Positions 9,255-38,008 of a DNA stretch of 38,008 nucleotides are shown piece by piece (position 1 is the first letter of the stretch; each line of letters starts with the position of its first letter). Both the position numbers and the translations under genes were made by a program. This DNA comes from Chiloscyllium plagiosum. Lineage: Eukaryota. The DNA is taken from contig NW_025214008.1 in NCBI RefSeq assembly GCF_004010195.1, positions 1 to 38,008 of the forward strand, read 5' to 3'. Under the pieces are notes generated by a model. The model searched no databases. It was given only the letters and a program-made list of their open reading frames with translations, and was not told the DNA's origin.

Positions 9255-10470
9255 GATGGAGAGTGGGACACTTTAATGATCAGGGGCATTCGGCCTCGGA
9301 TCTTCAAATGACAATCCTTCAAGGGGAACTTCGGTACTTGCAACAATGCACAGTGGCTGAGCAGAGGCTGATAGCCCATCTCAACCAATGGCCTCAGTCA
9401 AGTATTCGCGTTCCTGGCATACGCGAGGTTATCCGACTGCACTGTACACACTCTCTCATGCACACCCGAACACAAATATATACAAACTCCAACATACCCA
9501 CGCAGACCCGCTTTCACACGCGTGCTTTCTCTCATACACATTATAACAAACGTTTACAGTGTCATGCACCTGAAATGATCAATTGAACAAACGAAGATTG
9601 CATTTCAATATTTGATATTTTGGAATGGGTGGCAGTTTCGATTCATTAATATGTAAATTCCAGAACTCCTTTGATGTTACATTCTCGAGATATCTTTCAA
9701 AGGTTTACCAAAAAAATGCATTTAATCTCACCTCAGACAATGCATTTGAAGTGTGAGCTTAAAGTCTGCCTGTCTCCCAAACTTGATTCAGACCGTTTTA
9801 TTTCTATCGGAGGAATGCATGAAAAAATATAATTCATGAATTGACTGCCTGCGTAGACTGTCTATAGATTATGCGCTTTTTGACCAATTAGAATATATCT
9901 GCAAACATAATCCTGCGAATGCCAATTCGCCCCACAGACCTATATGTATTCGTGTGCATGAGAGAAAGAGGTAGTGGCTGTGCGCATATGAGTGTGCGCT
10001 TGTGAGTGTGACTAAACTTGAGACTGTGTATTTTCGTTTGTGCATGCACACTAAAGTGTGTGTGAGTGTGACGGACTACAAGCATGTGAAGTGTATGTGC
10101 ATGTTTGTGATTGTGGGGTATATGTTTAGGAGCTTCTAAGCTCACACTTCAAACGCATTGTGTGAGATAAAATTAAACGTTTTTTTTCGGAAACTTTTGG
10201 AAGTTATCTCGAGAATGTAACTTTAAAGGAGTTCTGGAATTTACATATTAATGAACCGAAACGTGCCACCCATTCAAAAATATCAAAGATTGAAATGCAA
10301 TCTAGGTTTGTTCAATGGATCTTTTCAGGTGTATGACACTGTAAACGTTTGCTATAATTGTATATTAGAACCCTGCTCCACGCTACCTGATGAAGGATCC
10401 ACGTTTTTAAACTCGTGATTCCCAATGGACCTGTTGGACTATGACCTGGTGTTGTATAACATTGAACTTT
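9255..10470. mobile_element. Penelope-like element 3' region (GIY-YIG domain tail plus 3' UTR) with internal inverted duplication
   Basis: ORF 9209-9586 contains VGHFNDQGHSASDLQMTILQGELRYLQQCTVAEQRLIAHL. CA-rich tract 9440-9540 is mirrored by TG-rich tract 9950-10125. Inverted repeat ~9541-9761 / ~10137-10357. Terminus CCTGATGAAGG...CCTGTTGGACTATGACCTGGTGTTG at 10387-10454. Confidence 0.85.
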
Positions 10471-33185: not shown

Positions 33186-33389
33186 CTACTCTCTGCCTAT
33201 CCTTCTGTTTGGTAATGTTATCTTCGTGTGATCCTAACGATCTCTCGTTTCCACCTCACAGACGAATAGAGTTCTCTTATGGTTTCATGTTGTACAATTG
33301 TTCAATGGCTGTAAAGAAACACCTGGAAACTATAGAAATAAGGCCAAGTTCTGTCCTGAATTCCTTGCTTGAGGACAAGTAAAAAAAAA

Positions 33390-34550
33390 ATGCATGCATT
33401 TGACTACGAGTATGGTTTTGTGAGTGAGAGGTCATGACTCGCAAATGCTTTAGATTTATTTAATGGAAGTGACTAGGAAAGTTGACGAGGGCTGGTCGGC
33501 AATAAAATTCTATATGGATTTCAGTCAGTGTTTTGCTATGTCTCCACGTGATAAGCTGCTCGGAAAGGTTAGATCACATGGAATTCAGGATAAGCTGGCA
33601 AGTTGGATACAAGATTGGTTGATGACAGGGAGCAGAGTGCAATATTGGAAGGAGTGGAGGCCTGTGACGAGTATAGTTCCTCAGAATTCGGTGTTGGGGC
33701 CAATGCTGTTTGATGTCGATATCAATGATTCAGGTGAAAATGTGCAAGGTATGATTAGCAAGTTTGCAGATGATACTAAAATAGGCAGTATTGTGGACAG
33801 TGAGGAAGGTTCTCAGTAATTGCAGCAGGAACTTGACCAGATGTAAAGGTTTCCTCTGAAATAGACAATAGAGTTCAATATACATAAGTGTGAGGTGTTG
33901 CACTTTGGAAGTAGTTTCAAACCAAGGTAGAAGTTTCATGGTGAATGGCAGGGAGTTAATTAGGGTTGTGGAAGTGAAGGACCTTGGTGTTCAGTCTCAC
34001 ATTTTTCTGAAAGTGGAGTCAAAGGTAGAATGGACGGTGATGAACGCTTTTGGCACACAGACCTTCATCTGGCAAGGCATTGAGTAAAGATAGATGGGAA
34101 GTGATTTTTCAGTTATGCAATACGTTGGTGAGATCACACTTGGAATACTAGAAGGAGTGCAGAAGAAATGTGACTCGGAATCAGAGGTCTGAGTTATGGG
34201 GAGACGTTGGACAATTTAGAACATATTTCTTTAGAGCATAGGGAAATGAGGCAGGACTTATTCAGATGCACAAGATCATGACAGACAAGCATTGGGCGTA
34301 TGCAGTCAGACATTTTTTCTAGCACTGGGGATTGGAGGACGAGTGGGCATCATTTGAAGGTTAGAGAGAAAAACATAAAAGGGGAACTGCAGAGGAACAT
34401 ATTTACACAGTGGGTGGTACGCTTATGGAATGAGTTGCAACCTGAAGTGGTTGAAGCAGCTGCATTCACAATATTTAAATGGCATTTGAATGAACACTTA
34501 GCTCGGTCTGGAACAGCTTGGACCAAAGGCTCTATCTCTGACCTGTAGGT
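33390..34550 (+). mobile_element. CR1 LINE RT-to-3' end fragment
   Basis: ORF 33463-33819 WRPVTSIVPQNSVLGPMLFDVDIND...MISKFADDTKIGSIVDSEEG; ORF 34300-34548 RTSGHHLKV...RNIFTQWVVRLWNELQPEVVEA. Confidence 0.92.
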
Positions 34551-34833
34551 CGCTAAAACGCTAAGATTATGTACTCCAGGTACAGTCTCACTAAGACTGC
34601 TTGCAGCTGCAGTATCTTTTCAGTATCTTTCCAACATTACCTTTATAATATTTGCCAACATTCCAACTTTCTGCCTTTTCAGCTGGTACAGTAATAGCGC
34701 CAGTGGGCTGAATGACCTCCTCCTATCCGTCCGCACCAGGCACATTGGGGCCATCACCGACACCATTAACGGCTCCAGAGAAAGGGAGAGGAGAGTTCAG
34801 AGTCTGAGAACAAGAGATTTGAATGTACATAAA

Positions 34834-35014
34834 ATGAATCAAAGTGTGAGAACAATCGATTGCAATGTTCTAACAATTGCCAAAGGTTTACCTGAGGCTA
34901 TTTGGTACCTTGCGACCTATTATAACCAATGGTCATTATCACAGCGGATCAAAATTTCACTTCTAATTGTTCAACATTTTTATTATCCTATCCTGGCTAT
35001 CGTTGGTGTCCCTG
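34834..35014 (+). CDS. First coding exon of a GPR139/GPR142-like class A GPCR (N-terminus and start of TM1); partial, the rest lies beyond the window
   Basis: First in-frame ATG at 34834 gives MNQSVRTIDCNVLTIAKGLPEAIWYLATYYNQWSLSQRIKISLLIVQHFYYPILAIVGVP, then CCT G|GTAAGT (phase-1 donor at 35015). There is an N-glycosylation sequon NQS. YYPILAIVGVP parallels GPR139 TM1 YYSLLLCLGLP-AN (recalled). No TE similarity seen. Confidence 0.82.
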
Positions 35015-35020
35015 GTAAGT
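35015..35020 (+). other. Canonical 5' splice donor GTAAGT
   Basis: CTG|GTAAGT immediately after the GVP codons; perfect intronic consensus. Confidence 0.8.
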
Positions 35021-35149
35021 ATCACTGCCTATTATTATTTCTATTAACCATGTTTAAATGTATTACTGTTTTTTTAAATTTACTTAACACTCGTTTCCAC
35101 TGACATTCTTATTGAGACATCGAGTCCGGTTATTCAGTCGACAAACCAC

Positions 35150-35640
35150 TACTAACCACATCTGTGAAATTGGTCATCTGCACTCTCCCTCTTTGATCCT
35201 GACACTGTCCTTCGTGGATCTCTGTGTTGACCGTTAAAATTTCATCTTTGAACCATGATTCATTGCATCCCTGCTCTTGTTATTTAAATACTTGTAGCCT
35301 GAAGGCCACTATCTTCTGTCTTGTTTGCAAACTCGGTTTCCTTCTCTGACTCCATTGCATGCCTCAGCAATATTTGCGGCTGAGATGAGTTCCAGATGTG
35401 ATGATCCCTTTAACCATGAGATGATTCCTGAAATCATATCCTGTCTATTCATAATTTTAACAACTAACACTTCCAGAATATATTTTACACGTTCACCCAT
35501 CTTCTACTTGAACCTGGAGCTATGAAAAACAGTCTTAATAACACCAATAACCTGCTGATGACACTCCTAACCCCAAAACTGAATATGCAATTCTGAGTCA
35601 ATTTTCCACGTAATGTATCCGAACCGACACAAAACTCCCA
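35150..35640 (-). mobile_element. Very decayed CR1 LINE 3' fragment (in the predicted intron)
   Basis: Antisense residual similarity, e.g. CTATTCATAATTTTAACAAC ~35445 and CTGAATATGCAATTCTGAG ~35579. Confidence 0.45.
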
Positions 35641-36419
35641 TCCATCCATCATTCCTCTGCGTACTGCAACATATTGTTATTGCGTTTGGCAAAGCCTTTC
35701 TGTTCGTCTTCAGAAGCACGTGATCACATCTGTCAGTGAAATGTCCCTCAGTCTCGGTTTGGACTAATCAAGTCTGCGCTGCACAACATGACTGATAGTT
35801 GCCCATGGATAATGCAGCAGAATGTATCTGACAGCAGATAGGGCGCGTAGAAATGTCACAAGTGGAGGAATAGTACCTCTGTAACCTCAAGATCAGCAGC
35901 AGTTTTTGACGCACAAGATAAACAAAAAAACATTTCAAACTAATTAGATGTTTCTCCGAAATAAGTTAATCAGTCCGGCACAATATTAAAAGTAGGCTTT
36001 AGTCAATATCTTCATAGAATCATAGATTTCGAAGTAGTTATAGTTCCAGAAACCTTTAAAAGCAGTAGACGAAAAGATTCAAATGAGTTTCGGACGGAAA
36101 GGATGATCATTATCCCCACTCTCATCAAAACAGAAAGGTATGCACATAGTGGTTAGTAGAAATTGGAATGTAGTTTGAATGAACACACTGGGGCACAATT
36201 TGTTAGAATAAAGTATAACATGAGATGTAACCACGTAACTTTTCTGGGACTGAACAAAACTCAAGTTCTTGAGAATAGTAAGACGTTTCCTGAAGTAGTG
36301 GGGAAGAATGCATACATTGACAGTTAACATGGAGAAAGAGCACCTGACAAATGTTAGTTAAATATAGCATTCATTGTGGAAACCTCAAAAAGAAAGACCA
36401 GAAAGTCTGGGAAAACATT

Positions 36420-37560
36420 ATGAAGGACTGGGGTGCCCACAAGCTTGCATCTAAATGATCAGCGAGTTTGAAATGCATAAGATGATATACCAGAGAGGCA
36501 ATTGCAGAGGGCTAATTTGGCACCGCTGATCAACAACTCATCAAAGTGACTGCCAAGCAAATATTCATTGACTTAAGCTTTTTTAATGTCCATTCGTTGC
36601 GACCTGTTAGATGTCGAATTGACATGGAATGTCAACGACAAACTGTTAATGATTGCAATTCCTCGGCATTTGACTCCATCGATTGTCTCCACCTCAGCTG
36701 TATTGGTGGAGGTAGTGGTGCTTTCGACCTCCTGCCTCCTGAAATTGATGATTAGCCCTTTAGTTTCTGTGACACTGAGGTAATGATTGTTATATTTGCA
36801 TCACATCACAAAGCACACCATTTTGTTCTTCTGTCTCAGTATTATTTGATATGCAGTCTAAAATTAACTTGTCGATGAATGCGGATCCAGGGAATATAAT
36901 AAGGGGCTGAGTGCATAATGTTGAGAGGCGTCGGCATGGAGGATTATCGTGGAGGAAGTGTTTGTCTCGTTTCACTGTTTATGGTCTGTGGGTCAAGAAT
37001 TGAGGATTCCAATTGCAGATGGAAGAGCCGCCACCTGGGTCTTAGAGCAAGGACATTGGTTTGGTTACAAGCATTGTGTTGTTAGGCAATTCTGTAGTCC
37101 TAATGTCGAAGCCTGATGTAGTTCATATGGATGTTCAGATATTCCAGTGGGTAGTGTAGAGCTAGAAAGATGGTATGTGACTTGAACCTATTGGGTCGGT
37201 CGACAAATTGCAAGAGATCAAGTCATGATAGATTTGATATGAGCAAGAAGTAATCTCTTGAAGCTTTTCATAATTATGAAGGTGAGAGCCACAGAATGGA
37301 AGTCATTGAGACACGTTGTATTTGTTTTGTGTGATACCCGGATTGTGCTGGCCTTCTTGAAGCAGGTGAGGACTTCAGATTGTAGCTAGTACAGGTTAAA
37401 GATATTAGCGAATACTCCCACTAGTGCCGGGGAATCCATTTGGCACAGTCGCTTTCCTTGAGTTCACTCACAAAAAAGCTGGTCGGACATATGTGGTGTT
37501 CACTGAGAGAGCAAGTGCATTATGGCTTTCGGGCAGGTGACAAATTTTCAATGACCTGCT
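36420..37560 (-). mobile_element. Rex1/Babar-type non-LTR retrotransposon RT fragment, decayed
   Basis: Minus strand gives CISNNTETE (ORF 36790-36975, cf. ISNNDETEY), LSVTETKGLIINFRR (36727-36780, cf. LNVSKTKELIIDFR), VLTCFKKA (GAAGCAGGTGAGGAC ~37360, cf. VPTCFK) and LSPLLYSL (CAGGGAATATAATAAGGGGCTGAG ~36888). Confidence 0.75.
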
Positions 37561-37579
37561 GTGTCAACCAAGCAGGCAA

Positions 37580-37928
37580 TGCAATGATTCAGTGGTTAGC
37601 ACTGCTACCTCATTCTGGCAGGGATCTCTGTTCCATTGCAGCTCAGGGCAACTGTTTGAGAGGCCTTTGCACAATCTGTCTGTGTCTGTGTGGGTTTTCT
37701 CTGGGTGCTCCGGTTTCCTCCCACTATGCCAGTTATATGCAGTTTAGGTGAATTGGACATAATAAATTTCCCATACTGCTCATGGACGTAATGCGTAGGT
37801 GCATTAGTGAGGGGCTAATCGAGTGCAATAGCGTCAGGGAATGGATCCAGGTAGGTTTCTCTTTGCAGGTTCGGTGTGGACTTGTTGTGCCAAATGGACT
37901 GTTGCCACACTGCTGGGATTCTATAATA
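37580..37928 (+). mobile_element. HE1-like tRNA-derived SINE (moderately decayed)
   Basis: CAGTGGTTAGCACTGCTACCTCA head, GGGTGCTCCGGTTTCCTCCCAC core, TCGGTGTGGACTTGTTGTGCCAAATGGACTGTTGCCACACTG tail; similar to 19838-20143. Confidence 0.88.
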
Positions 37929-38008
37929 ATATGCGCCCGCTTGGAGAAGGGGAGGTATTGTGTTAGAAATTGTGCTCGGCTTTATATTTTTTTAGCCATG
38001 TTAATAGC

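Follow-up and report, generated by a model that had tools for sequence, protein, structure and literature searches.

A shark exon from a large, GPR139-related receptor repertoire with a possible role in chemical sensing

The window analyzed here, a stretch of 38,008 nucleotides from Chiloscyllium plagiosum that makes up an entire contig (G000:C100603), raises the question of whether a short protein-like segment among transposon remnants is part of a gene and, if so, what that gene does. Reverse-transcriptase remnants of LINE elements occupy at least 6.3 kb of the window in 11 patches, the nearest of which is a broken remnant at 33286..34148 on the plus strand, recognized by Pfam and profile matches. 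When 38 of the 85 long frames of the window were scanned with Pfam, only two matches, both to reverse transcriptase, were above cut-off. This is consistent with a sequence-only reading in which the segment was the only non-repeat, protein-like part of the window. Three short tandem arrays were also found in the window, and Rfam gave no match on it.

The segment begins with an ATG at 34834-34836, which opens a frame of 60 codons running to a CCT (Pro) codon at 35011-35013, followed by a lone G at 35014 and a phase-1 splice donor GTAAGT at 35015..35020 on the plus strand. Both the 60 codons and the G|GTAAGT donor had been described from the letters alone, and it had been recognized correctly that the open reading frame track overruns the donor into the intron, as the stop-to-stop frame spans 34549-35103. 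A G|GT after the equivalent Pro codon is retained in 27 of the 29 other loci fetched. Pfam gave no significant match with the 60-aa peptide alone. Searched against its own genome, the peptide gave E<=7e-12 for all of the 150 loci scored among 3,029 candidates, and it corresponds, at 47% identity, to residues 1-60 of a whale-shark protein called 'probable GPR139', with the alignment stopping where exon 2 starts. Exon 1 is thus more than a chance frame. In the paralogues L036 and L038, an acceptor AG|TN-AAC (two bases, then Asn) opens an exon 2 of 307 aa, and paralogue exon 2 matches Pfam 7tm_1 (E 2e-19; 70.8 and 73.2 bits against a cut-off of 30.5). Splicing of exon 1 to such an exon 2, beginning with x-Asn1.50, would give a receptor of about 360 aa. 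Bases 34834-35014 on the plus strand are thus almost certainly exon 1 (60 codons plus 1 nt, for the extracellular N-terminus and TM1) of one copy of an expanded two-exon class A GPCR family, as judged from homology and the conserved donor; the gene structure proposed earlier gains its support from the 7tm_1 exon 2 of the paralogues.

Many members of the family carry a 42-nt (14-residue) N-terminal unit in variable tandem copy number, often with an N-glycosylation sequon (e.g., L019, L024, L025, L032, L047 and L048; proteins P0323 and P0348). Two degenerate copies of this unit make up window positions 34792-34875, and 34792-34833 matches the first 42 coding bases at 28 of 42 nt.

Because the contig ends at 38008, 3 kb into intron 1 (35015..38008, plus strand, cut by the contig end), exon 2 of the window copy cannot lie inside the window, and family profiles run over the window matched exon 1 with exon 2 absent. 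Over 2.65 kb the intron shares 92% identity with C95106, and over 1.7 kb it shares 92.5% with C98143. On C98143, the nearest relative of the intron, an open exon 2 follows about 19 kb further along the same strand, beyond N gaps. This exon likely resembles the missing exon of the window copy, and does not imply that the window copy has one. An assignment of the window copy's own exon 2 was attempted and rejected: around C8:48.0 Mb, the place to which its subfamily maps, an N gap takes up the position of exon 1 of L154, and no assembled exon 1 separates the two open exon 2s found there. In C95106, two copies of the far-upstream family element described below (G000:C95106:5977-6214 and 9330-9567), separated by 3.3 kb, precede what is the nearest full-length relative of the intron.

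The family to which the exon belongs is large. A protein search with exon 2 returned 1,495 proteins; among the 120 matches listed, all are from sharks and most are named 'probable G-protein coupled receptor 139', which bears out the earlier statement that cartilaginous-fish annotations contain many divergent GPR139-like genes. Exact patterns of 21-23 nt found 677 exon-1/donor loci and 637 exon-2 loci in the assembly, the exact exon-1 pattern recovering 9 of 30 and 3 of 16 known loci. With two mismatches allowed, the numbers rose to 2,534 exon-1/donor and 1,899 exon-2 matches, with 0 for reversed-pattern controls; these counts come from a fragmented assembly of 101,977 contigs, in which alleles and fragments may inflate them. 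With some 1,900-2,500 matching loci, the window exon is a member of an expanded family, as the sequence-only reading had supposed. The matches listed crowd on scaffold C8, and members were found in sharks, rays and chimaera. Among the first 60 exact exon-2 loci listed, 15 have N gaps and 15-16 of the other 45 are intact; the script called 14, inspection removed one and added two, and one more is open without a detected acceptor. Extrapolating this third to the 637 exact exon-2 loci gives an estimate of at least 200 intact genes. Frames of 312-486 aa at some exon-1 matches were considered as intronless retrocopies and rejected, as they proved to be N gaps.

Within this family, exon 1 of the window copy is undamaged. 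It is 96% identical to two sister copies and differs by three private amino-acid changes and two silent ones (codons 5, 25, 27, 28 and 40), its ATG stands in a good context, and its donor is perfect. The upstream region has a different history. Six close paralogues match the window in two pieces, and compared to L005 about 950 bp (approximately -1034 to -89) are missing, with the join at 34745. Family sequence that in close paralogues lies far upstream, at approximately -1264..-1035 from the ATG, is here found at 34517..34745 (plus strand; 90% identical to L005 and 79% to L012), directly beside a remnant of the likely 5' UTR at 34746..34833 (plus strand), as delimited by paralogue alignment. 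The same alignment places the junction at 34745..34750 (plus strand), and TGGGG microhomology on both sides in L005 fits a real deletion. Among the 40 family loci scored, none of the other 39 is continuous across this junction. What was deleted is the non-coding block that the family conserves best, and it contains a homeodomain-like TAATTA, Ebf-like half-sites and an ATAAAT box. Consequently the window copy has neither the block nor its box, and the 600 bp before its ATG hold no homeodomain or Ebf-like match, compared to an ATAAA box in 23 of 27 paralogues.

As this block is the likely promoter, the window copy is probably silent, a judgment based on the deletion as it appears in the assembly. 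Alternatively, transcription from a different promoter, either new or further away, or by way of a non-coding exon upstream could make the copy a working gene; an assembly error could also account for the deletion. We regard this as a lesser possibility, though a sizeable one, given the open exon 1 with its good start and donor, the two close sister copies and the open exon 2 in C98143. Yet the segment lost is precisely the one that the family has conserved most among its non-coding sequence, the microhomology is in keeping with a real event, some two in three of the exon 2s free of gaps are broken, and exon 1s with no exon 2 behind them exist. A copy that is probably silent is itself of little importance, but it shows how members die: the likely promoter is lost and the exon remains undamaged, so that working members must be fewer than a tally of intact frames suggests. 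L027 apparently has an upstream deletion of its own (approximately -1070 to -230 relative to L005), and loss of the upstream block may recur as a way in which members die. At window position 34697, an additional C appears in the contigs of both DNA-like runs, X1 and X3, which points to a possible 1-bp assembly error or an allele. These two runs were read as DNA because of their DNA-like contigs, while the single-cell RNA runs yielded 7 partial reads (X5) and 0 reads (X6); summed read depth at the window donor does not give copy number.

The pattern of selection bears on what the intact members may do. In codon tests of 21 intact exon 2s, which omitted L091, L089, L113 and L127 and used regions set by topology beforehand, omega was 0.92 for extracellular parts, 0.31 for the TM core and 0.38 for intracellular parts. 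Comparison of M1a and M2a gave 2dL=346, with an omega of 6.8 on 5.9% of sites, a test that is open to inflation by gene conversion, and synonymous length also seems higher in the extracellular class. All 16 sites with a posterior above 0.9 are extracellular (ECL1, ECL2 and the tops of TM6 and TM7), although that class comprises only 78 of the 289 columns. The family is therefore very probably a repertoire under diversifying selection. Values of omega near 7 are no less typical of arms races in immunity.

Like a chemoreceptor repertoire, the family is large and clustered, contains pseudogenes and diversifies at its ligand face. In our main reading, to which we give a probability of roughly one half, it is a repertoire of chemical sensors that turns over by birth and death. 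Its likeliest site would be smell-type neurons, its fast-evolving outer vestibule would recognize peptide-like ligands, and the window copy would be one of its members, likely a silent one. The OR, TAAR, V1R, ORA and T2R repertoires are comparable in that they form clustered GPCR arrays with birth-and-death turnover and many pseudogenes, and have a conserved inner face and a variable ligand side; the homeodomain and Ebf-like sites upstream may be a further likeness. The family differs from them in its separate ancestry, in the intron inside TM1 and in that its outer vestibule, and not its deep pocket, is what varies.

The conserved upstream block bears on which cells might use these receptors. 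Its ATAAA box mostly lies 128-141 bp before the ATG in the 23 paralogues that have it. In 22 of 25 promoters, which are related and not independent, a homeodomain core TAAT[TC]A precedes the box by 30-33 bp, and an Ebf-like site (<=1 mismatch) directly follows the box in 10 of these 25 related promoters and is missing in 15, with any match occurring in 4.5% of shuffles. These motifs are short. Ebf acts in B cells too, and GATAA doubles as a GATA site. Adjacent Lhx2 and Ebf sites mark olfactory receptor enhancers in mouse, according to passages of PMC5608512. Only 20-62 complete olfactory receptor genes are given for cartilaginous fishes in a section of PMC10869828, in line with the small shark olfactory repertoires mentioned in parts of PMC6368271. 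Taken together, the homeodomain and Ebf-like sites and the small known olfactory repertoires tilt the balance to external chemosensation, which on sequence evidence appears somewhat more probable than immunity. In the accessible part of a catshark study (PMC11979771), the top-50 genes of a brain and olfactory library include no GPCR.

A more far-reaching version of the main reading is tentative, and somewhat less probable than its converse: that cartilaginous fishes have a further vertebrate chemoreceptor family, with hundreds of intact genes from a GPR139-related orphan lineage, exceeding the known OR, TAAR, V1R and V2R genes together severalfold, expressed in sensory neurons and reading peptides via a variable vestibule. 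If true, such a family would explain why sharks smell well despite few known receptors. About two thousand loci, an estimated at least 200 intact genes and strong outward-facing selection contradict the picture of GPCR-poor genomes (as cartilaginous fishes are described in part of PMC8455134) with few olfactory receptors, whichever tissue uses the family. We found no published description of it in the literature on shark receptors, genomes and repertoires, where subscription papers and some supplements may list these genes. The texts of PMC11979771, PMC8455134, PMC11406177, PMC10869828 and 10.1101/2025.06.08.657570 do not mention GPR139 or GPR terms, and 12 of the 24 supplements of PMC8455134 gave no match to the family. 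Its proteins are already in RefSeq, where their name misleads, and the family is apparently a large, undescribed receptor repertoire. Recognizing the mislabeled family makes the paradox of shark olfaction testable.

The same diversification could serve immune surveillance, with the receptors on leukocytes or barrier epithelia sensing peptides from pathogens or damage, as formyl-peptide receptors or MRGPRs do. We consider this unlikely, though not strongly so. Very strong, outward-facing positive selection and the broken state of about two thirds of gap-free copies would suit such a role, and the neighborhood offers some hints, as a URGCP/GVIN GTPase of the interferon-inducible type lies beside the paralogue on C101948 and the joined gene model P0249 suggests adjacency to an integrin-alpha-like gene. 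Location in fast-turnover regions is not function, however, and the homeodomain and Ebf-like block before a TATA-like box resembles olfactory regulation. The GTPase frames on C101948 (L035:1645-6577, minus strand; URGCP/GVIN-type very large GTPase, Pfam URGCP_GTPase, E 6e-142) are split over three frames and lie about 11-16 kb downstream of the family exon 1. P0249 is a database model of 790 aa that combines the N-terminal half of a family receptor with integrin-alpha-like sequence, and is probably a fused model of neighbors.

The surplus of first exons, with the exon-1 pattern commoner than the exon-2 pattern by 1.33 to 1, allows a different gene architecture, in which the surplus exon 1s are alternative first exons with their own promoters and a shared exon 2, as in the clustered protocadherins or UGT1, and the window exon is one of them. 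Such an arrangement would fit scaffold C8, where 7 exon 1s and zero exon 2s lie at 10.12-10.32 Mb, where a same-strand pair of exon 1s has neither a gap nor an exon 2 between, and where 5 plus-strand exon-1 pieces precede one exon 2 at 6.60-6.80 Mb. Many of these exon 1s are truncated or cut by gaps, though, and their orientations are mixed. Simple genes of one exon 1 and one exon 2 are known (L036, L038), the selected diversity sits in exon 2, and partial duplication together with assembly gaps explains the surplus. Alternative first exons are therefore improbable, and it is simpler to regard the surplus as orphan exons left by partial duplication. The two regions of C8 (G000:C8:10,120,001-10,320,000 and 6,600,001-6,800,000; L157-L196) hold 13 exon-1 pieces and one exon 2 in total; the tandem exon 1s at 10,211,177 and 10,233,300, 22 kb apart, have an inverted duplicate pair near them.

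Which ligands the chemical sensors of the main reading might detect can be judged from their conserved residues. We scored 120 family proteins by motif anchors, with numbering from a profile alignment to GPR139 and the same kind of anchors. The class A motifs N1.50, D2.50, DRF and P5.50 are present in the alignment, as are C3.25 (116/116), W6.48 (119/119), N7.49 (100/101) and Y7.53 (99/101), and the family has lost P6.50 (kept in 1 of 119) and P7.50 (0 of 101). The deep pocket and the charged D3.37, E5.39, R6.59 and E7.36 are near-invariant, and positions 6.58, 7.32 and 7.35 are variable (101-119 of the 120 proteins scored). We infer that the deep polar set of D3.37, E5.39, H5.42, W6.48, R6.59, E7.36 and Q7.42, with the disulfide between C3.25 and ECL2, may grip the part of the ligand that all members have in common. 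Specificity would then be set by ECL1 and ECL2 together with the tops of TM6 and TM7, and the conserved inner face (DRF, N7.49, Y7.53) would couple all members to one G-protein pathway. A shared anchor with a variable vestibule would suit peptides better than free amino acids, and the protostome receptors of the superfamily, which respond to peptides (PMC8514136), point the same way; a peptide-like ligand has about even odds. A structure model of P0007 (pLDDT 51, seven long helices) is too weak for pocket geometry.

Free amino acids, suggested earlier by analogy to GPR139, are by comparison very unlikely ligands. GPR139 binds Trp and Phe via F3x33, H5x43, W6x48, N7x38 and R6x51, as stated in part of PMC5430874. 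The family agrees with three of these pocket residues, having Tyr at 3.33 in 103 of 116, His at 5.42 in 99 of 102 and Trp at 6.48 in all 119 proteins. GPR139 is also its best PDB match in a profile search (E 8e-12) and likewise in a fold search with a low-confidence model (E 1e-3); when a family exon 2 was searched against PDB as a single sequence, GPR139 was not among the matches at E<0.001. Additionally, the intron interrupts both at the same position and phase, just before Asn1.50, as the sequence-only reading had placed it: the acceptors of L064 and L067 (GPR139/142) agree with the family exon 2s. Exon 1 of L064 and of L067 was not located, and for the true GPR142 it was not found in the 10 kb upstream. 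Against these similarities, the residues that anchor the amino-acid backbone are absent, with Arg6.51 in 0 of 119 and Asn7.39 (N7x38) in 0 of 101 proteins, as is Glu3.32 (0 of 116), and twenty amino acids would hardly need hundreds of receptors with variable vestibules. The nearest relatives are also other orphan lineages, so the proposal of GPR139-like amino-acid sensing is not upheld.

The earlier view that the window copy is not a true GPR139 ortholog fared better, since the family occupies a separate branch and the true genes lie elsewhere in the genome. One GPR139 (C21; E 2e-157 to a PDB chain) and one GPR142 (C24) were found by a degenerate TM7 pattern with six matches, the other four being non-coding chance matches. 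These two proteins are 55% identical to each other and each about 23% identical to the family. GPR139 (PDB 7VUG, 9M42) and GPR142 share with the family the class A 7tm_1 fold, the two exons and Y/F3.33, H5.42 and W6.48, and are the source of its database label. They differ from it in being single genes here, compared to hundreds to thousands of family copies, and the family has Cys3.25 and an ECL2 Cys and is without Pro6.50 in addition to the three residues named above. In a 51-row tree, the GPR139/142 clade (100/100) excludes the family, whose 22 rows lie on one side of a branch (97/95); the tree is midpoint-rooted and has no protostome outgroup.

A further reading takes the family for cargo without function that segmental duplication has multiplied in chromosome arms rich in repeats. 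This might explain why it is embedded in LINE debris, why flanks and introns were duplicated along with exons and why most copies are broken, but is highly improbable given an omega of 0.3-0.4 on the TM core and inner face, positive selection confined by topology, and intact members across sharks, rays and chimaera.

The wider relatives of this putative sensor repertoire are found in small orphan lineages. Among 1.84 billion representatives searched with a profile, 129 matched at E<=1e-30, and of the 30 looked up the named ones come from sharks, rays and chimaera, followed by salamander, coelacanth, teleost, caecilian and amphioxus. Nematode srw receptors (PF10324) are a chemoreceptor expansion of the superfamily of GPR139/142 receptors. 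The nearest feature clusters of the family include FMRFamide-receptor-like proteins, and PF10324 is assigned to 16% of the family's own cluster. In part of PMC8514136, GPR139/142 and the protostome peptide receptors of FMRFamide, MIP and myosuppressin type are given a common origin; in relation to these and to srw, the family is at most an independent expansion.

Within the tree, the family is sister to a conserved salamander orphan gene (100/99; XP_069092602, XP_069461538, XP_078504422), and next to these branches a gnathostome clade of the coelacanth type (99/95; XP_005988539). Both carry the same database label as the family, but differ from it in being one or two conserved genes per species, and in sharks a single gene of their own belongs to the coelacanth-type clade, distinct from the expanded family. 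This clade possibly corresponds to the GPR210A/B subtypes, which are named near GPR139/142 in coelacanth, gar and fishes in a portion of Rinne et al. (PMC6504862). The salamander gene is a good handle on the ancestral ligand of the family. It is nearly invariant in three salamanders (P0351, P0400, P0403; branches 0.01-0.12) and has a long stem. A conserved adjacency that could serve synteny is suggested by P0410 and P0508, members of the single-copy gnathostome clade from zebra shark and a frog whose annotation is that of TMEM183A isoforms.
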